A stretch of DNA of 64,000 bases, taken from the NCBI GenBank assembly GCA_018061645.1, contig JAGOTT010000002.1, forward strand, positions 23,842 through 87,841. Direction: 5' to 3'. This DNA comes from Candidatus Moraniibacteriota bacterium. GTDB lineage: Bacteria > Patescibacteriota > Minisyncoccia > Moranbacterales > UBA1568. The notes below the pieces were generated by a model that did not search any database, was not told the DNA's origin, and saw only the letters and a list, made by a program, of their open reading frames with translations. The translations under genes were made by a program, and so were the position numbers. Below, in pieces: positions 8,738 through 61,722 of this stretch. How positions within the stretch are numbered: position 1 is the stretch's first letter; the number at the start of each line of letters is the position of its first letter.

Positions 8738-9820
8738 ATGGAATCGAGGGCATTCCCCCTGAAGGAGCAGGTATCGAATAATATGGATGGTATCATCGGG
8801 ACGCGCGGCTCTGCCGGGTCATTTCTTCGTGCTTCTTCCTGTGCGGAGACGATCCCTTCGGTCCGCTCCGTCATCTTTTCGCGGGGAAAGCGGGCTGCTG
8901 TCGTCTCGTTTTCCGGTGACCGATACCTCTATCCGGCGCAGGCTATAGATTTTCTCGGCGAGCGGCCGCTCTATCTCTCCTCCATGAAGGTCGTCGATGG
9001 TCTGAGGAAGAAGGGATTTGTTCCGTCTTCTGGAGTGTCGCGTCCGTCCGTCGCTCTTGTCGCTCCGTCCAAAGAGGCTTTTGCTGCGGTCGAGGAAAGC
9101 TTCAGGAATTTCGGTGCGGATCTTTCCGCCGGGTTTTCCGGGTTCCGATTCGGAATCTCTTCGGGAAAACTGGCCTACGCCCCGCTTATCGGCGCGATGG
9201 CGCTCGGGATGGTGTCGGCGCTCTCGCTCGAACATTCTTTCGGACAAGGGGCTACGGCGGAAGAAGCGCGTATCGTCTATGTCGAGAGGACAGGATCGGA
9301 ATCCGTTCTGGGATCGGAAGACGGAAAGAACCGACTGCTCGATACGGAGGAGTTGCTTACCGGGCTTGTCGCGGAGGATCCCGATAAGAAAGAATTCGAG
9401 AACCGTGTGCGGAAACTGGTGAAGGGATATCCGATAGAAGACATGATTCCCTATATCATCGAGAAGGATCGGACAGTCGCGATGTTTTTGGTGGCAATCG
9501 CGAAGAAGGAGAGCGATTGGGGGAAACGCGTTCCGGTGCTCGAAGGACAGGACTGTTTCAATTATTGGGGATACCGCGGTATCCGGAAGATGATGGGAAC
9601 CGGGGGGCACACCTGTTTCAATAGTCGGCAGGACGCCGTGAATACCGTCGGGAAACGTCTCGAAACGCTCATCATAACGAACAAGCTCGACACGCCGGCG
9701 GATCTCATCCTCTGGAAGTGCGGCTCGTCGTGTGCGGGGCATAGCTCCTACAGCGTGCAGAAATGGATCGCGGACGTCGATCTCTATTATCGGAAACTTA
9801 ACGACGAAGGGAAAGAGTGA
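8738..9820 (+). CDS. membrane-anchored protein, paralogue A; C-terminal domain with AKKESDWGKR motif (possible lysozyme/glucosaminidase-like wall hydrolase)
   Basis: Shares a ~150-aa C-terminal domain with 9994..10773 (AKKESDWGKRVP...DCFNYWGY...WKCGSSCAGHS...KWIADVDLYYRKL). Confidence 0.6.
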   Translation: MESRAFPLKEQVSNNMDGIIGTRGSAGSFLRASSCAETIPSVRSVIFSRGKRAAVVSFSGDRYLYPAQAIDFLGERPLYLSSMKVVDGLRKKGFVPSSGVSRPSVALVAPSKEAFAAVEESFRNFGADLSAGFSGFRFGISSGKLAYAPLIGAMALGMVSALSLEHSFGQGATAEEARIVYVERTGSESVLGSEDGKNRLLDTEELLTGLVAEDPDKKEFENRVRKLVKGYPIEDMIPYIIEKDRTVAMFLVAIAKKESDWGKRVPVLEGQDCFNYWGYRGIRKMMGTGGHTCFNSRQDAVNTVGKRLETLIITNKLDTPADLILWKCGSSCAGHSSYSVQKWIADVDLYYRKLNDEGKE

Positions 9821-9993: not shown

Positions 9994-10773
9994 ATGCAGG
10001 ATATCGATTCGGTGACAGTGGAAGAGGAAGGAAATAAACGCAGAAGACAATCAAAAAAAAGTTATTCATCGGGACGCCTCCGGCAGGCGCTTTTTCTTTC
10101 AGGGGCAGCGCTCTTCGTGTTCGGCTCGGCTTTCGCTTTTGCGCGGGAATCAGAAGGGGTAGATGAATCGAATCGCGGAAGTGATTCTTCGGAGGAAAGT
10201 CTGAAAGAGTTATGTCTTTTCAGACTCGAACAGGAACTCTGGGAGTCGTTCGGGGGAAATCGGAATCCATCAGGTGCTCGGACGGACGCGATACGGAACT
10301 GTGAAGAAATCGTTTCCGGAAAGGACATCTTCGTGTCGAACGATCGGAGCGAACTCGAAGCGGAAATCCGCGCTCTTGTTTCCGGGTATCCGATCGAGGC
10401 GATGGCGACTTTCATCGCGTCGTATGACCGGGAAATCGCCGCGCTTCTTATCGGTATCGCGAAAAAGGAGTCGGATTGGGGGAAGCGCGTGCCTTTGGAC
10501 GATGTCGGGAAGGACTGCTTCAATTACTGGGGATACAAGGGGGCAGGATCGCGGGGTATCGGTATGGGACACGGATGTTTCGGGAGTCCGGAGGAAGCGG
10601 TGTCCACAGTGGGAAACCGTCTCGCGGAGCTCGTCGCGATCAGGAATACGAGCGATCCGGCGAACATGATCATCTGGAAGTGCGGCTCGTCGTGCGCGGG
10701 ACACAGTCCGGAGAGTGTCCGGAAATGGATCGCCGATGTGGATCTGTACTATCGGAAACTCGCGCGGTCGTAG
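9994..10773 (+). CDS. membrane-anchored protein, paralogue B of 8738..9820
   Basis: Signal/TM N-terminus and the same conserved C-terminal domain. TAG stop. Confidence 0.6.
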   Translation: MQDIDSVTVEEEGNKRRRQSKKSYSSGRLRQALFLSGAALFVFGSAFAFARESEGVDESNRGSDSSEESLKELCLFRLEQELWESFGGNRNPSGARTDAIRNCEEIVSGKDIFVSNDRSELEAEIRALVSGYPIEAMATFIASYDREIAALLIGIAKKESDWGKRVPLDDVGKDCFNYWGYKGAGSRGIGMGHGCFGSPEEAVSTVGNRLAELVAIRNTSDPANMIIWKCGSSCAGHSPESVRKWIADVDLYYRKLARS

Positions 10774-10780
10774 ACATTGG

Positions 10781-10808
10781 AACGCTCCTTCGGGGGCGTT
10801 TTTATTTT
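10781..10808 (+). terminator. rho-independent terminator (AACGCTCC-UUCG-GGGGCGTT + T-run)
   Basis: ggaacgctccttcgggggcgtttttatttt. Confidence 0.5.
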
Positions 10809-10835
10809 GAAAGACTATCCCGAGTTTTCCGGCAG

Positions 10836-10863
10836 TTGCAAAAAAAAACGATAGTGGGATAAT
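10836..10863 (+). promoter_or_regulatory. promoter TTGCAA-16-TGgGATAAT (extended -10), duplicated upstream of both Gly-rich paralogues
   Basis: atcccgagttttccggcagTTGCAAaaaaaaacgatagTGgGATAAT. The same ~50 nt is present at 58606-58655. Confidence 0.45.
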
Positions 10864-10986
10864 GATGGGAGAATCGCAGAATGAAGAATGATGATTGAAG
10901 AATTGAAGACTCCTATTTTAAAATCTGCAATCCACGATCCTCATTCATCATTCCGCGTAAACCAAAAACAGGCTAACAAAACGTCT

Positions 10987-12174
10987 ATGCGAAAAGGCAA
11001 CACGCTTCTCTATTGGGTGAAGGTCGTCTCCCTCGGTCTCATCCTCGGCCTCGGTCTCCAGTTCGCCTAGGCCTGGACCGCTCCATCCGCCCTTCCTCCC
11101 GGAGGCAACGTCGCAGGACCGGTGACGCTCGGAGCCGGCGCCCAGTACAAGCTCGGACGCCTCGGCGTGAACTCGAATGTCGCCCCGATCAACGCCCTCG
11201 AAGTCGGAGGCGGAGGCAACGCGCTCATCGGAGGAAACGCCTACGTGAGCGGCAGTGTCGGTATCGGTACCGCGGCTCCCACCGCCTATCTTCACGTACA
11301 GAAACCGTACGATCCCGGAACCCCGCTTTTCATCGCCACCAACTCATCGAACGACAACGGGTTCCGCGTCGGAGGACTCGGTCTCACCAGTCTCGGCAAC
11401 CATGCCGCTTCCGACGGTTCTCCCGCCGCATGGCTCAATGTCAAGGCGGAATCATCCGTCGGAAAACCGCTCATTCTCGGAACGAACGACGGAGCCGATC
11501 GGTTCCGTGTCGGAGGCGCGGGAAAAGTCGAGGCCTTCGGAGCCAGTGCCGACTTCTGTCTCGACAGGGGATCCGGTGCGACGTGTCTTTCGACCGTGGG
11601 CGGAGGGGGCGGATCGGGGACGGTGACGAGCGTTGGGACGGGTTCGGGCCTCACGGGAGGACCGATTACGGGGACGGGGACGATCGGCATCAATACGACA
11701 GGAATTTCCACTTGTACGGGAGGAAGTCAAAATATCGTCTGGGATGCATCCAATAGCCGCTTCAAATGCGAGACGGATGACACCGGCGTCAAGAGTTTTT
11801 CCTGTCCGTCCGGACAGGTAGTTTCCGGATTTGATGCCTCGGGAAACCCAATCTGCGTGAGTCATGTAAGCAGTCCGTTGAAAGGGTATTCGATGGGATG
11901 GGATGTCACTAACAGTCTCTATTATATAAGCGTAAGAACGCCAGCAGGTTTTTTGTCGCCGCGTTGTGGCTGTGATACGCGAATTGAAAACCTTCCGTCT
12001 GGTACTGGTACGACTGATTGTGGTGTTGTGGCTACTAGTAACGGTAAAGGTACAGCTGTTGCTGGGGGCAAATTTGGTTTTCATCAGGCAGACGTCGGTC
12101 CTGTGTGTTATGACCAGATACATGCTCCGTTTTCAAATGGCAATCGATCGATTCCATATTATAGGCTTGATTAA
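10987..12174 (+). pseudogene. glycine-rich secreted protein paralogue interrupted by in-frame TAG (11068-11070) at the signal-peptidase site
   Basis: ORFs 10888..11070 and 11122..12174 are in the same frame, separated only by TAG. Reads ...VKVVSLGLILGLGLQFA*AWTAPSALPPGGNVAGP..., against ...LKVVSLGLILGFGLQFAQAWTAPTQAPPGGNVSGP... in 58723..60069. Confidence 0.5.
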
Positions 12175-14868: not shown

Positions 14869-16482
14869 ATGAAAATAAAAATCATCTTCTCGTTCCTTTC
14901 GGCGGTATTCTTTACGCTTGGAATGCTCTTTATTTCCATGGACGGGCGCTTGGGAGAGGTTCTCGGCGATACGACATTGTCGACTGGGCTGCAGGGCGAT
15001 AACCAGATCGTCGGAGCGGACTCGCCAGGAACGGTTACAGCACTTCTCGCACCCGAACTGGTCGGTTCGCTCACAGGTCCGACATCGGTCAGATTGAATT
15101 GGACCCGACCGGCAAACGCTTCCGGGACGGTCACATACAAGATCAAGCGAAACGGAACACCCATCAAAACCTTCACGGATGTGCTCTCGTATGAGGATGT
15201 CGGTCTGAACCCGGGATCGAAATACGAATATGCCGTGTGGGCGGGAGACTCTGCGGGGAGAACCTCGAAAAGCGCCGTGTTCGAAGCGACGATTCCCGCT
15301 CCTGTCGGGGCACCTTCGGAAACAGCGTCGTCTACCGGAATCGTTTCCGAATCGAATCAGTCGGATACGATTGCGGATGTATCGCTTTCCGTTCCGGCGT
15401 TGAGCGGTTCGCTCACAGGTCCGACATCGGTCAGATTGAATTGGACCCGACCGGCAAACGCTTCCGGGACGGTCACATACAAGATCAAGCGAAACGGAAC
15501 ACCCATCAAAACCTTTACGGATGCGCTCTCGTATGAGGATGTCGGTCTGAACCCGGGATCGAAATACGAATATGCCGTGTGGGCGGGAGACTCAGTAGGA
15601 AGAGTCGTTCAGGCGTCACCGGTCAACATCATACTTCCGAAACCGGTACTGCCGGCTGTAAATGCCGTATCGGAATCGGCTTCGCCGGTTTCCGGCTCGA
15701 AGACGACCTATTCGGATTCCGGTTATCAGAAAAGTGCATCCGCTTCGACCGATGCCACGAAAGCTCCTTTGCCGGGGCAGGAAGAGAGGGATATTGATCC
15801 GTCGAGCGTCGTCACCTTGTCTGACCGTGATTCCGACCGTGATGGTCTGCCGGATGCCGAAGAAATCCGGGTAGGATCGGATCCGTTCGGTGTGGATACG
15901 GACGGTGACGGTTTTCCGGACGGTGAAGAGGTGAAAAGAGGTTTTAATCCGCTGAAATCGGCCACGAGCGATCGTGGCGATAAGGTCGTATTCGAATCTC
16001 CGAAGGAAAAACGGATATCGAAAGCCTCCGTCGAGGATCGCCGGCTTCGGGTTGAAAAAGTCGAGCGTGTGGTCCGTGAAAACGGGGGTGTCGGTACGAA
16101 AATCTCCGGGAAAGGAATTCCGAACACTTTTCTGACAGTCTACATCTACAGCGATCCCATCGTCGTGACCGTGAAGGCCGATGAGAACGGGAATTGGTCA
16201 TATGAACTCGATCGGGACCTTGAAGACGGAAATCATGAGGTGTATGTGGCCGTCACGGACGCTACCGGACGCATTTCTTCCCAATCAAGTCCGATTCCGT
16301 TCGTGAAGACGGCGCAGGCCATCAGCATCGGTTCCGTTTCCGACATGGAACGAGCGATAGAGGGAAATCGGTCGCCGGTCGAACGCGCCGGAGGCCAATT
16401 CATTTTTTTCGGCATCGCGATAGTGATTATGTTCCTTCTCGGTGCATTCTACTTCATCGGGCATAGGGCCTTTTCAGATTGA
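14869..16482 (+). CDS. surface protein with duplicated FN3-like modules, thrombospondin type-3 Ca-binding repeats and C-terminal TM anchor
   Basis: Signal peptide, two identical LTGPTSVRLNWTRPANASGTVTYKIKRNGTPIKTFTD modules, DSDRDGLPDAEE/DTDGDGFPDGEE repeats, and a C-terminal hydrophobic helix. Confidence 0.65.
   Translation: MKIKIIFSFLSAVFFTLGMLFISMDGRLGEVLGDTTLSTGLQGDNQIVGADSPGTVTALLAPELVGSLTGPTSVRLNWTRPANASGTVTYKIKRNGTPIKTFTDVLSYEDVGLNPGSKYEYAVWAGDSAGRTSKSAVFEATIPAPVGAPSETASSTGIVSESNQSDTIADVSLSVPALSGSLTGPTSVRLNWTRPANASGTVTYKIKRNGTPIKTFTDALSYEDVGLNPGSKYEYAVWAGDSVGRVVQASPVNIILPKPVLPAVNAVSESASPVSGSKTTYSDSGYQKSASASTDATKAPLPGQEERDIDPSSVVTLSDRDSDRDGLPDAEEIRVGSDPFGVDTDGDGFPDGEEVKRGFNPLKSATSDRGDKVVFESPKEKRISKASVEDRRLRVEKVERVVRENGGVGTKISGKGIPNTFLTVYIYSDPIVVTVKADENGNWSYELDRDLEDGNHEVYVAVTDATGRISSQSSPIPFVKTAQAISIGSVSDMERAIEGNRSPVERAGGQFIFFGIAIVIMFLLGAFYFIGHRAFSD
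15064..15593 (+). repeat. two ~188-nt near-identical tandem copies (15064-15251 and 15406-15593, period 342 nt)
   Basis: Only 2 mismatches between the copies. Each encodes an FN3-like module. Confidence 0.85.
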
Positions 16483-20675: not shown

Positions 20676-20691
20676 GGTTTCGTGCTTAAAA

Positions 20692-21096
20692 TGTGGAGTT
20701 GATGGGAATCGCACCCATGTCCAAAATGTTTCTTCAAAATAATCTACAAGCTTAGCGTGTCTTGGGTGATACTGAGGGGTAAAAGATACGCGAAATCCCT
20801 TCAGGATCGTTTCTTCGTGCATACGGCTCAAGGCGGGAAAAAACGGAAGTCGCCTCTTGTCGTCCCGATAATATGACACCGAACGTTCCTACCGGGAATC
20901 AGGCGTTCGATGGCTCCGCACTAAACTGAATTAGGCGAGGGCAGGCGCGAAAGAAGGGGCAAACGCTTGCGCGAATGCGTTCTTGGCCTTGGTGATGAAG
21001 TTTGCATTTATCATCGTGGAAGCGAGTTTTTCGATCATACTTCCGAGATCGGCTTGCATATTTTGAATGTGCATCCTGTCGAAACTAGGCAACCCC
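20692..21096 (-). ncRNA. ssrA: tmRNA (ssrA)
   Basis: 5' GGGGTTGCCTAGTTTCGACAGG (canonical tmRNA start). Tag frame GCAAACTTC...GCCTAA = ANFITKAKNAFAQAFAPSFAPALA*. 3' T-arm GGGTGCGATTCCCAT and acceptor CAACTCC pairing with the 5' GGGGUUG. smpB is ~150 nt away on the same strand. Confidence 0.75.
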
Positions 21097-58566: not shown

Positions 58567-58616
58567 CGTCATCCTGAGTCCGCCAAAGGCGGATAGGCTC
58601 CGCGAAGAATCCCGAG
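58567..58616. repeat. E-element copy 3 (5' module + hairpin TCCGCCaaaGGCGGA) fused to the Gly-rich gene promoter repeat
   Basis: CGTCATCCTGAGtccgccaaaggcggataggctccgcGAAGAATCCCGAG. Confidence 0.45.
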
Positions 58617-58627
58617 TTTTCCGGCAG

Positions 58628-58655
58628 TTGCAAAAAAATCAAATCGTGGGATAAT
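58628..58655 (+). promoter_or_regulatory. promoter TTGCAA-16-TGgGATAAT (copy 2)
   Basis: Identical ~50-nt block as at 10812-10863. Confidence 0.45.
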
Positions 58656-58722
58656 GCATCCAGGAAACAGTCAACAAGTAACAGTTAACAGAAACCGTAT
58701 GCATACGAAACAATCGTTCGCG

Positions 58723-60069
58723 ATGAAAGTCTCATACTGGCTCAAGGTCGTCTCCCTGGGACTTATCCTCGGATTCGGACTCCAGTTCGCCCAAGCCTGG
58801 ACCGCTCCGACCCAAGCCCCTCCCGGAGGCAACGTCTCGGGACCGATCACCGTCGGCGATGTCGGACAGAGTAAGGCTGGAAACCTCGCGCTCAACACGA
58901 GCGGGGCATACGCGAACGGACTCCTCGTCCCGAACGGCAATGTCGGTATCGGCACCGCGGCTCCGAACAGGAAACTTCACGTGCTCTTCAATAATCCGAA
59001 TGCCGACGGAACCAACGGACAGCTTGTCGTCGAGAATATCGCCGACAGCGCGAACGGTGTCGCCGCGGTGAATATACGTGTCGGGAACGCCGGCGCGATG
59101 GGCAATCTTCAGTTCAGCGTCGGAAACTGGCAGGGAAGCGCGAACAAGGCGGCATTCGGCTATGACCACGGAGGACAGGAATTCGAATTCTGGACCCTGA
59201 ACGGATCCTGGTCGCCGAAACTCTTCATCGGTCAGACGGGAAACCTCGCCGCCAACGGCAACATCACGTCCGGCACCAGTGTTACCGCGCCGCAGTTCTG
59301 CATCGGCGCAAGCTGTATCAACAGCTGGCCGAGCGGAGGTGGTTCCGGTGATAATCTCGGCAACCACACCGCGACGCAGAATCTCAATATGGGAGGCTTC
59401 AATGTCTCCAGTGCCGGAGCCGTCTACGCCAACACCTTCTATGACAACAACAACGTCGGCTACTATCTCGATCCCGCAAGTACGAGTTTCGTCAATGGCA
59501 TCGCCGCTGTCGGGAACTACACCACGACGAACGGGAATATCACCACGACGAACGGTGACTTGTCCGGCAAGAGGGTGTGCATAAACGGCGTGTGCCAGGG
59601 GAGTTGGCCGGCCGGCGGGTCGGGGACGGTGACATCGCTCTCCGCGGGGAACGGTATCACGCTTTCCCCGAATCCGATCGTGGGAGCGGGGACGATTTCC
59701 TGGAACCATACCGCGACGCAGAACCTCGACATGAATACCACGAACAGGATCATCAACCTCGCAACTCCGACAGGCAACAATGATGCGGCGACGAAGGGGT
59801 ATGTGGATGGAAAAGTCGGCAGTTGGGCAATTTTTTCCAATATACCTACGGGAGCGGTGGCTGCCGGTTGTAGCCAATTTCATAGTGTAGCATCCTCACG
59901 ATATTCCGCTGAATGCTGGGGAGGGGCGAGTGTGAATATCGTCACTTGCGGAACTACGCTAACGACGTCAAATTGTCCAGCAGGTACGACAAGAAAAGGA
60001 AACATGACTTCGTCAGTAGACGGTGGCTTCTGTGATGTAAGAGGTGCTTTCAGCTGTATAAAAAATTAG
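58723..60069 (+). CDS. glycine/asparagine-rich secreted protein (tail-fibre-like beta-helix adhesin?), intact paralogue
   Basis: Sec signal MKVSYWLKVVSLGLILGFGLQFAQA/W. Repeated GNVGIGTAAP-type motifs, C-terminal Cys-rich region and ...NLATPTGNNDAATKGYVD motif. The first ATG at 58654 lies inside the -10 box, so the start was moved to 58723 (or 58699). Confidence 0.65.
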   Translation: MKVSYWLKVVSLGLILGFGLQFAQAWTAPTQAPPGGNVSGPITVGDVGQSKAGNLALNTSGAYANGLLVPNGNVGIGTAAPNRKLHVLFNNPNADGTNGQLVVENIADSANGVAAVNIRVGNAGAMGNLQFSVGNWQGSANKAAFGYDHGGQEFEFWTLNGSWSPKLFIGQTGNLAANGNITSGTSVTAPQFCIGASCINSWPSGGGSGDNLGNHTATQNLNMGGFNVSSAGAVYANTFYDNNNVGYYLDPASTSFVNGIAAVGNYTTTNGNITTTNGDLSGKRVCINGVCQGSWPAGGSGTVTSLSAGNGITLSPNPIVGAGTISWNHTATQNLDMNTTNRIINLATPTGNNDAATKGYVDGKVGSWAIFSNIPTGAVAAGCSQFHSVASSRYSAECWGGASVNIVTCGTTLTTSNCPAGTTRKGNMTSSVDGGFCDVRGAFSCIKN

Positions 60070-60189: not shown

Positions 60190-60564
60190 ATGTTCGTAGA
60201 CAGACCACTCGGAGACCCGCTCAAGCGGAAGCAGTTGAAATGGCTCCTTCTCGTGCTCGGCGTCATCATGATTATCGCGATACTCCTTCTCTCGTTTCGT
60301 CTTATGAAAGAGCCGGTGCAGGATCCGGCGCAGCCGATGTCTCCCGATAAGGGTACCGCGCAGGGAAAGCCGACCCAGGAGGATGTCCAGAAACAACTCG
60401 AAATGCTTGCCAAGGAAGACGCCGCGAACTCCGCTCCGAAGCCGACCCAGGAGGAAATCCAAAAGCAGCTCGAAGCGCTTGCTGCCGAGGATGCCAAGAA
60501 TCCCGCTCCGAAGCCGACCCAGGAGGAGATAGCGAAGCAGCTCGAGGCCCTTTCCAAACAATAA
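60190..60564 (+). CDS. small single-TM protein with 24-aa tandem repeats (PKPTQEEIQKQLEALAAEDAKNPA)
   Basis: N-terminal TM. The repeats are encoded by 72-nt tandem units at 60370, 60442 and 60514. Confidence 0.5.
   Translation: MFVDRPLGDPLKRKQLKWLLLVLGVIMIIAILLLSFRLMKEPVQDPAQPMSPDKGTAQGKPTQEDVQKQLEMLAKEDAANSAPKPTQEEIQKQLEALAAEDAKNPAPKPTQEEIAKQLEALSKQ
60370..60561 (+). repeat. 72-nt in-frame tandem repeat, ~2.7 copies
   Basis: The unit ccgacccaggagga...gctccgaag repeats with ~80% identity. Confidence 0.75.
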
Positions 60565-60576
60565 CGGAAGGAAATT

Positions 60577-61722
60577 ATGAAAACAAAAGCATTCAGAAAG
60601 ATATTCGGGACATTCGCGGTTCTGGCGTTCGCGCTCGGTGCCGGTGTCGCGATCCGCTCCGCCTCCGCAGGAATGGAAACCGGTTCCGGCTGGTTGTGGG
60701 GCGGAAGCGAGGTTGCCGATACGAATGGTGGTGCCGCACCGAACAACGGGGTATTGGATGGAGATGAATCCGGTCTTGGGTGGGTGAGCTTCAACAGCAC
60801 CGATTGTGATACGAACAACAATGGAACCATCGAGGCCTCCGAAGTGGCAGCGCATCCGGGATGTCCGGCAGGCGCGACCGCGAGTTATGGAGTGGATATC
60901 CCTTCCGGTAACGGTCCGCTTTCCGGCTATGCCTGGTCGGAAAATTTCGGTTGGATCAGTTTCAACGGCGCCGATCTATCGGGAGTAAATCCTTGTGCCC
61001 CAGTGCTTGCACAGGCGACACGGACCGGAAGTAGTATTTCCGGCGGAGCGAGGATTCTTTCCATAAAAACTGCGATGGCAGCAGGAAATGCCGGTGGGTT
61101 TGACGGATGTATCAGTCTCTCCGGAGCGGCTCCAGCTTATAGTGTGACCGTTGATGCAACACCGGATCCGGATAAGTTATTGGGCTATGCTTGGTCGAGC
61201 GATCTCGGTTGGATCGATTTCAGCCGTGCGTCGGTCGGGGGCGCGTTGCCTCCCCCGAACACCCTCAAGGTCTGTCTCAATTCCTGCGATAGTGGAAGTC
61301 TCAATTTTAATGGCGGGGTTATAAGCTTCAACCCGACCGAAACCCGTCAACTCGTATCCTGTCATAATTCCGCTCCTGATTGTTCGATGGCTTCCGGGGA
61401 TATCACCGCGCTTGGTACTACGAGCTTCTCTGCAGGGGATACTCCGAATGATGCTGTGACTCCGACAGCGACAAAGGGAGAATTCCAGGCGAACGCCGTC
61501 GCATCTACTCAAAGCGAGGATGTTTCGATCGTGACGGCATCTGGTAACGCCTCAATGCGATTTACCACCCTCTATACTCCAGCATGCTCCTCCTGTAACG
61601 ACGAAAAAGCGCAGCACTGTCCGACTGAAACTTGGACGAGCGGATGCGGAGTGAGTTGTGCGGCGGGAACAGGCACTCGATACTGCGACATGAACTGGAA
61701 GGAAGTGGCGCCGGGACAGTGA
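60577..61722 (+). CDS. secreted protein with three GYAWSENFGWISFN-type aromatic repeats and Cys-rich C-terminus
   Basis: Signal peptide MKTKAFRKIFGTFAVLAFALGAGVAIRSASA. Repeats LGWVSFN / GYAWSENFGWISFNGADLS / GYAWSSDLGWIDFS. Confidence 0.55.
   Translation: MKTKAFRKIFGTFAVLAFALGAGVAIRSASAGMETGSGWLWGGSEVADTNGGAAPNNGVLDGDESGLGWVSFNSTDCDTNNNGTIEASEVAAHPGCPAGATASYGVDIPSGNGPLSGYAWSENFGWISFNGADLSGVNPCAPVLAQATRTGSSISGGARILSIKTAMAAGNAGGFDGCISLSGAAPAYSVTVDATPDPDKLLGYAWSSDLGWIDFSRASVGGALPPPNTLKVCLNSCDSGSLNFNGGVISFNPTETRQLVSCHNSAPDCSMASGDITALGTTSFSAGDTPNDAVTPTATKGEFQANAVASTQSEDVSIVTASGNASMRFTTLYTPACSSCNDEKAQHCPTETWTSGCGVSCAAGTGTRYCDMNWKEVAPGQ

Follow-up and report, generated by a model that had tools for sequence, protein, structure and literature searches.

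A gene in the MAG of a Candidatus Moranbacteria bacterium, one copy of a large family of leader-bearing proteins, is interrupted by a single in-frame TAG codon, and the best explanation appears to be an ordinary one: most likely, a nonsense mutation of recent origin or, with lower probability, an erroneous base, in a multigene family that recombines rapidly, rather than recoding. In the window, that is, the entire 64-kb stretch of DNA that was analysed, the interrupted gene is a 394-codon frame that runs from ATG 10987 to a TAA ending at 12174 and is broken only at 11068-11070. Its parts, together with the coding sequence currently annotated at this locus, are as follows:

10987..11067, + strand, leader part: 27 codons, nearly all of the predicted signal peptide (MRKGNTLLYWVKVVSLGLILGLGLQFA)
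11068..11070, + strand, in-frame TAG: position -2 of the A-x-A↓W motif, with CAG or CAA in four homologous loci
11071..12174, + strand, gene remainder: last leader residue, conserved WTAPSALPPGGNV N-module, Gly-rich fibre-like body, Cys-containing C-terminal tip, TAA
11122..12174, + strand, NCBI CDS KBD19_00795 (MBP9751384.1): 350 aa from a GTG, without the leader and without the conserved N-motif

Frame 1 of the + strand is open over 10885-11070 (61 codons) and again over 11071-12174 (367 codons), with the TAG as the sole break, exactly as proposed in an earlier reading made from the sequence only (hereafter, the sequence-only reading); the second segment contains neither another stop nor a frameshift. 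The translation around the break is ...GLGLQFA-stop-AWTAPSALPPGGNV..., the interrupted frame reads ...MRKGNTLLYWVKVVSLGLILGLGLQFA-stop-AWTAPSALPPGGNVAGPVTLG..., and the predicted mature part contains AWTAPSALPPGGNVAGPVTLGAGAQYK. Two details of the sequence-only reading have to be revised. It started the interrupted gene at 10888 and the sister gene at 58723, whereas the likely starts are ATG 10987 (MRKGNTLLYW...) and ATG 58699, respectively; and it placed the TAG exactly at the signal-peptidase site, where the codon indeed lies within the A-x-A↓W motif, but as its x, at position -2, two codons before the predicted cleavage bond. In the other two frames, the region after the TAG contains 10 and 13 stops, and none of 20,000 shuffles of this region (0/20000) stays open. 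Because the 367 codons after the TAG are fully open, the lesion appears to be recent. A listing of same-frame ORF pairs across the window was noisy and revealed no other broken gene.

The interrupted gene is one of at least three paralogues in this Candidatus Moranbacteria genome. The sister gene within the same window is intact:

58699..60069, + strand, sister gene KBD19_01045: 456 aa, intact, CAA at 58792-58794, ends in TAG, directly downstream of parB

The likely start of the sister gene, ATG 58699, is also the one chosen by NCBI (456 aa). Its translation includes ...GFGLQFAQAWTAPTQAPPGGNV... (over a longer stretch, ...YWLKVVSLGLILGFGLQFAQAWTAPTQAPPGGNVSGPITVG...), with CAA, as previously read, in the codon at 58792-58794 that matches the TAG. 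Similarity between the two proteins is high over the first ~45 residues only, and overall they are 31% identical. The third paralogue, KBD19_03230 (P0008; 482 aa), lies on another contig of the same MAG and is 76% identical to the sister overall, with a near-identical long central body and a different C-terminal tip; by eye, its leader shares features with that of the interrupted gene (NTLLYWVK, PSALPP). The C-terminal tip of the interrupted gene matches only a single homologue (P0003; 56% over 98 residues). The sister gene has a syntenic counterpart downstream of parB in a relative (L016, P0011) that is 88% identical over the first 95 residues; this protein is shorter (392 vs 456 aa) and, judged by eye, diverges from about residue 190. 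A positional orthologue of the interrupted gene was not found, and the homologue with the closest leader (P0002) is located in a different neighbourhood, after a MurJ-like gene.

The N-terminus of the homologues is strikingly conserved (...YWLKVVSLGLILGLGLQFAQAWTAPxxAPPGGNVxGPxTxG..Q.K.G.L...) and is followed by unrelated, modular C-terminal parts. The interrupted gene carries the conserved N-terminal 60-90 residues that define the family (YW.KV.SLGL.LG.G.QFAQAWT.P..PPGGNV.GP.T.G...Q.K.G.L). This 'A-x-A↓WT.P..PP.GN' family of CPR bacteria is unnamed and has no Pfam or NCBIfam model; we found no relevant literature on the family motif or on tail-fibre-like proteins of CPR. An initial homologue search produced 44 matches, and an exhaustive HMMER search with the first 95 residues of the sister as the query retrieved 10,343 cluster representatives at E<=1e-3 and 1,764 at 1e-10, counts that include giant proteins matching only the NVGIGT..P..KLHV repeat, many times over.

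The leader of the interrupted gene (MRKGNTLLYWVK / VVSLGLILGLGL / QFA-x-A↓W) fits the rules for Sec export and signal peptidase I cleavage, namely, a positive n-region, a hydrophobic core of 10-15 residues and small residues at -3 and -1, as judged by a rule check rather than by a predictor. Among the 96 leader-bearing proteins retrieved, 85 have [AV]-x-A before the invariant W (median position 32), in line with the (-3,-1) rule; thus, cleavage at A-x-A↓W is predicted, although the leader may instead stay uncleaved as an N-terminal anchor. The residue at position -2 of these leaders is Q in 39 cases, R in 19, L in 8, K in 7, F in 6, A in 5 and S in 4, with others in the remainder. By this comparison, the position hit by the TAG is apparently unconstrained, a site without any special role.

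From the leader and the tail-fibre-like modules, the family can be predicted to consist of secreted or surface-anchored fibre-like proteins of CPR bacteria. Searches of Pfam, NCBIfam, PHROGs and PDB sequences gave no match for either the interrupted gene or the sister, and the AlphaFold2 model of the post-stop part is poor (mean pLDDT 56.5, pTM 0.25) and provides no basis for a fold search. The likeness to phage tail fibres and tailspikes with a PF13884 chaperone comes from the relatives: several family members (P0005, P0012, P0014, P0015, P0017 and other homologues) carry a C-terminal PF13884 domain (Peptidase_S74), the NVGIGT..P..KLHV repeat recurs many times in the giant relatives, and P0008 shows a weak match to a PHROG tail-fibre family. 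Unlike those phage proteins, however, the interrupted gene and its sister have no PF13884 domain in the Pfam search and no PHROG match, the leader is of the cellular Sec type, and the neighbours are housekeeping genes such as parB and lgt. A viral origin was considered and rejected: in IMG/VR viral contigs, the leader pattern was not found, the only match being an unrelated one. With modular C-terminal parts apparently exchanged on a common leader and N-module, this is, by its sequences, a family that recombines and turns over fast.

The regions upstream of the interrupted gene and of its sister contain the following elements:

10779..10802, + strand, terminator-like hairpin with T-run: ends the upstream gene 9994..10773
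10817..10864, + strand, promoter block of the interrupted gene: 30-nt exact repeat 10817-10846, -35 TTGCAA 10836-10841, 16-nt spacer, TG 10855-10856, -10 GATAAT 10858-10863
10875..10957, + strand, long 5' UTR hairpin: lies in the ~117-nt 5' UTR, ~63 nt inserted compared with the UTR of the sister, retained in locus L005 of a related species
58609..58656, + strand, promoter block of the sister gene: -35 TTGCAA 58628-58633, 16-nt spacer, -10 GATAAT 58650-58655

Because the terminator-like hairpin closes the upstream gene, the interrupted gene appears to be a transcription unit of its own, with its own promoter. The common upstream block noted in the sequence-only reading was recovered in full: the window contains the 30-mer ATCCCGAGTTTTCCGGCAGTTGCAAAAAAA exactly two times (at 10817 and 58609; 0 expected), and both copies run on into GTGGGATAAT, yielding TTGCAA-16-GATAAT with an upstream TG. 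The further claim that the promoter had been duplicated together with the sister holds only to the extent that the block is common to both genes; it is family-wide and present also in related species, and so is not a private duplication. The 30 bases upstream of the -35 element are identical in both copies in this genome but diverged in the loci of related species, including L005, which shares the special 5' UTR of the interrupted gene and yet has diverged in these 30 bases. Such identity within the genome, combined with divergence between species, suggests concerted evolution within the genome. Across the four loci that have this promoter, the A-run of the spacer ranges from 7 to 9, whereas the spacer itself measures 16 nt in every one; an independent contig (L001) shows the same A-run, with no length variation between samples. 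We therefore rejected phase variation via the poly-A tract, given the constant spacer length.

At the codon that matches the TAG, the two most similar leaders (L005/P0002 and L016/P0011) carry CAG, whereas the sister gene and L011/P0004 carry CAA. Starting from this CAG, a single C>T transition explains the TAG. We searched for recurrence of a stop at this codon with the nucleotide pattern GGN NTN CAR TTY GCN TRR GCN TGG RYN NNN CC, which corresponds to G-x-Q-F-A-stop-A-W-[T/V]-x-P and in which TRR covers TAA, TAG, TGA and TGG. The pattern had one match, unrelated (Acidobacteriaceae), in 185,579 GTDB species genomes and two, also unrelated, in JGI metagenomes; thus, neither collection yielded a further member of the family that is interrupted at this codon. 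The GTDB species representatives, as scanned with this pattern, do not include the source MAG. The size of the family was taken from the protein libraries instead.

The inferred ancestral context of the TAG resembles a known mutational hot spot. Coulondre and Miller (1978) reportedly found amber hot spots at CCAGG in the lacI gene of E. coli, where deamination of 5-methylcytosine converts CAG to TAG. Here, likewise, the ancestral GCC-CAG-GCC would contain CCAGG, with the inner C mutated to yield CTAGG and glutamine replaced by an amber codon. In contrast to the lacI case, however, a CCWGG methyltransferase lacks support in this organism. In the window, CCAGG was observed 42 times vs 43 expected and CCTGG 32 times vs 45; given that CCWGG is not clearly depleted, the 5-methylcytosine hot spot is a speculative lead only, and we did not adopt it.

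Taken together, we consider it probable, although well short of certain, that the interrupted gene is a real, recent null allele, that is, a fresh nonsense pseudogene. The starting points are the stop itself, the intact downstream frame, the ancestral CAG or CAA codon, the normal usage of TAG and the absence of recurrence. Under this scenario, each paralogue would have a separate promoter of the sigma-70 type, a leader of the Sec type that ends in A-x-A↓W, a conserved N-terminal module (WTAP..PPGGNV.GP.T.G...Q.K.G.L) and a C-terminal part that is modular and recombines. At leader position -2, one C>T transition would have turned CAG, which encodes Gln, into TAG; ribosomes that start at ATG 10987 would then stop after 27 residues, producing only a signal-peptide fragment, and the 367 codons behind the TAG would be left untranslated, whereas any restart at GTG 11122 would give a product without the export signal and without the conserved N-module. 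Because translation would end within the leader, with the downstream codons untranslated, the allele would be a null, and a very recent one. Among the three options listed in the sequence-only reading, a recent nonsense mutation or a variant is accordingly favoured, given the CAG in the closest leaders and the undamaged downstream frame, whereas programmed read-through is disfavoured by the lack of recurrence in GTDB and JGI and by the free variation of position -2 among the 96 leaders.

The closest known parallel is an ordinary nonsense pseudogene in a multigene surface-protein family, with one premature stop in an otherwise intact paralogue, intact sisters in the same genome and a truncated ORF that the annotation pipeline rescued from the next start codon. 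The ORF is disrupted in comparison with the intact homologues, and the promoter is intact. Unlike the ordinary pseudogene, however, the interrupted gene shows no second lesion, and for this reason a fresh pseudogene and a sequence error can be told apart only by reads.

The alternative that has to be weighed most seriously, although we regard it as clearly the less probable one, is that the T at 11068 reflects an error in the consensus or the assembly, or else a strain variant in the minority, such that most cells have CAG and an intact gene that is expressed like its sisters. The independent coverage of the locus bears on this directly. Exact-protein look-ups of neighbouring genes identified the same strain in two other runs, SRR11088391 and SRR34217545, and four Logan contigs match the window at 99.98-100% identity, differing from it at 1 of 16,158 nt. 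Contigs from other runs cover the gene body from 11079 on, and in another run its sequence is 100% identical. However, the k=31 contigs break in the paralogue repeats on both sides of the TAG, stopping at 10846 or 10971 and restarting at 11079 or 11583: the last base of L002 coincides with that of the 30-nt promoter repeat, L001 extends to 10971, and L003 picks up at 11079. The nearest independent contig misses the TAG by 8 nt and none spans 11068, which leaves room for a consensus error or a minority variant. Look-ups of the 350-aa product, of the 60-aa and 42-aa upstream ORFs, of the sister and of P0008 for independent coverage returned nothing on record. An intact full-length version of the protein is likewise missing from a library of 5.8 billion clusters, an absence that says little given that the contigs are broken at this very spot.

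The TAG sits in the leader repeat that is common to the paralogues, where assemblers are least reliable, and the lack of a second lesion equally fits an intact gene with one wrong base; both observations count against a null allele. An error in the consensus would also account for the fact that the GTDB and JGI scans show this stop in no other member of the family, and the leader is repeated among at least three paralogues. Conversely, none of the four homologous loci examined has a T at this position (CAG, CAG, CAA, CAA), so that the T is unlikely to come from collapsed paralogues, with the exception of P0008, which is still a possible source because its DNA was outside this comparison. Substitution errors are rare in a short-read consensus, and the near-clonal appearance of the population, with the single mismatch across the two other runs, argues against this alternative as well. 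On balance, the T at 11068 is probably present in the cells.

A real but leaky TAG, read by a near-cognate tRNA-Gln(CUG) that would restore the glutamine and permit low-level expression, with read-through acting as a dimmer, is improbable. Near-cognate decoding of UAG would insert glutamine, which is the ancestral residue here, and both the promoter and the downstream frame are intact. Insertion of the wild-type residue is, however, what would happen in any CAG>TAG mutant. Against this alternative, the stop is neither conserved nor recurrent at this site in any relative; the window encodes no suppressor tRNA(CUA), its tRNA and tmRNA content consisting of one tRNA, Leu(CAA), plus tmRNA; and an Rfam search of the window detected only these two, with nothing credible around the TAG and no known recoding RNA family. 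The base after the TAG is G, and UAG-G is not known to be leaky in bacteria. Any nonsense allele is subject to background read-through, so read-through of this TAG would not be evidence of a programme.

A similarly improbable extension of the null-allele scenario is that the family forms a recombination-driven surface-variation system in an episymbiotic CPR bacterium, with the TAG copy as a silent reservoir cassette that would be reactivated by gene conversion from a sister leader. In such a system, the promoter, leader and N-module would serve as homology handles, and the C-terminal receptor-binding tips would be exchanged between paralogues. Quite apart from this extension, the family can be compared with the vlp and vsp genes of Mycoplasma, families of variable surface proteins that combine a conserved promoter and leader with a variable body. 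Like these families, the present one has several copies per genome with common promoter and signal-peptide DNA and divergent C-terminal parts, an A-run in the promoter spacer, and a block upstream of the -35 element that is identical within the genome and diverged between species. In contrast to vlp and vsp, however, the spacer is a constant 16 nt in four loci despite the A-run of 7 to 9, without length variation between samples; the inactivation is a base substitution rather than reversible slippage; and the leader is not of the lipoprotein type.

We give very little weight to the notion that the 350-aa protein from GTG 11122 is a real functional product, a leaderless cytoplasmic derivative. 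MBP9751384.1, entered as 'hypothetical protein KBD19_00795' in a Candidatus Moranbacteria MAG, is 100% identical to the post-stop product, and GTG 11122 is the first in-frame start past the TAG; thus, NCBI annotated precisely the restart product without a signal peptide that the sequence-only reading had anticipated. However, the Shine-Dalgarno candidates for this GTG, read directly from the sequence, are poorly placed, with GGAGG 16 nt and AGGA 3 nt upstream, and a start at this position would remove the leader together with 17 residues of the module that is best conserved in the family. For these reasons, the 350-aa KBD19_00795 CDS is best regarded as an artefact of annotating a truncated frame, and probably is one. 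Furthermore, no homologue begins at this point, and a perfect leader of the family is still encoded by the 81 nt before the TAG, something that would have to be coincidental if the gene began at 11122.

The weakest alternative, in which this organism or gene would read TAG as sense by means of a suppressor tRNA, code reassignment or pyrrolysine, has nothing in its favour beyond the in-frame TAG itself and is most improbable, given that no tRNA(CUA) is encoded in the window and that TAG terminates 13 of its 60 non-overlapping long ORFs, including the sister gene (26 others end in TGA and 21 in TAA). The judgement of the sequence-only reading that TAG is a normal stop here and that reassignment is unlikely, as well as the suppressor screen that it called for, thus came out as expected within the 64-kb window. 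Several of the TAG-ended ORFs precede a terminator or the start of the next gene.

In itself, the TAG means little, being either a null allele caused by a single base or a base-calling problem, and it affects one copy of a redundant family. For annotation, the consequence is a correction: KBD19_00795 should carry a flag for a pseudogene, or for a gene with an interrupted frame, rather than be presented as a 350-aa protein. The family in the background is of modest use. It is a very large, unnamed, CPR-wide set of leader-bearing, tail-fibre-like, mosaic putative surface proteins that deserves a family model of its own; its members are plausible candidates for host attachment in CPR episymbionts, and the family is probably important for the cell-surface biology of CPR bacteria.

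The 5' untranslated region (UTR) of the interrupted gene, the member of the fibre-like family with the in-frame TAG, carries an insertion of about 63 nt compared with the UTR of its intact sister, and this insertion is predicted to fold into a long hairpin (minimum free energy -29.7 kcal/mol, z = -3.1).

Features discussed here, in window coordinates
8738-9820 and 9994-10773: pair of paralogous genes directly upstream of the interrupted gene
10875-10957: 5' UTR hairpin of the interrupted gene
11850-12174: low-GC 3' end of the interrupted gene
20691-21096, - strand: tmRNA gene (ARAGORN; Rfam RF00023, 108.5 bits)
59800-60069: low-GC 3' end of the sister gene

The hairpin is retained in L005, a homologous locus from a related species, with the pairing preserved across three one-sided changes; no double compensatory changes were found between L005 and the window, and no second copy of the hairpin was detected elsewhere within the window. 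It may function as a leader, either stabilising or regulatory; alternatively, it may be a small inverted-repeat insertion.

The two genes directly upstream are mutual paralogues that share a C-terminal Cys-containing domain of about 130 residues (…GKRVP…CFNYWGY…WKCGSSCAGHS…DVDLYYRKL), for which Pfam and NCBIfam yielded no match. A few genes downstream of the interrupted gene, 14869-16482 encodes a protein of 537 aa that combines fn3, bacterial TSP3 repeat and Big_13 Ig-like domains and is probably another surface or adhesion protein. Two same-frame ORFs, 60190-60564 and 60577-61722, follow closely after the sister gene, with one TAA and 12 nt between them; Pfam yielded no match for either, and the pair may represent separate genes or a further interrupted gene. 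In L016, the related-organism locus syntenic with the sister gene, a gene for a 127-aa four-helix-bundle protein of the bAvd / 23S_rRNA_IVP type (1012-1395) is flanked by parA on one side and parB on the other; this fold is also that of the accessory protein in diversity-generating retroelements.

Across the whole window, GGCC is under-represented about two-fold, with 90 occurrences observed against 190 expected under a maximal-order Markov model, and the count of CTAG is low as well (16 vs 29), which may be the footprint of a GGCC-specific restriction-modification system. The tmRNA encodes the tag peptide ANFITKAKNAFAQAFAPSFAPALA.

In both paralogues, GC content is about 0.63 across the regions for the N-terminal and central parts and drops to about 0.48 over the last 300 nt or so. 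This drop fits the acquisition of the C-terminal tips as separate modules; it may also be a mere effect of amino-acid composition. At the other end of these genes, the 30 nt covering the -35 box and the region upstream of it are identical in the two paralogues (10817-10846 and 58609-58638), and the same stretch has diverged in L005 and L016, the homologous loci of a related organism. This combination of identity within one genome and divergence between genomes suggests that the promoters of this family undergo gene conversion with one another within a genome.
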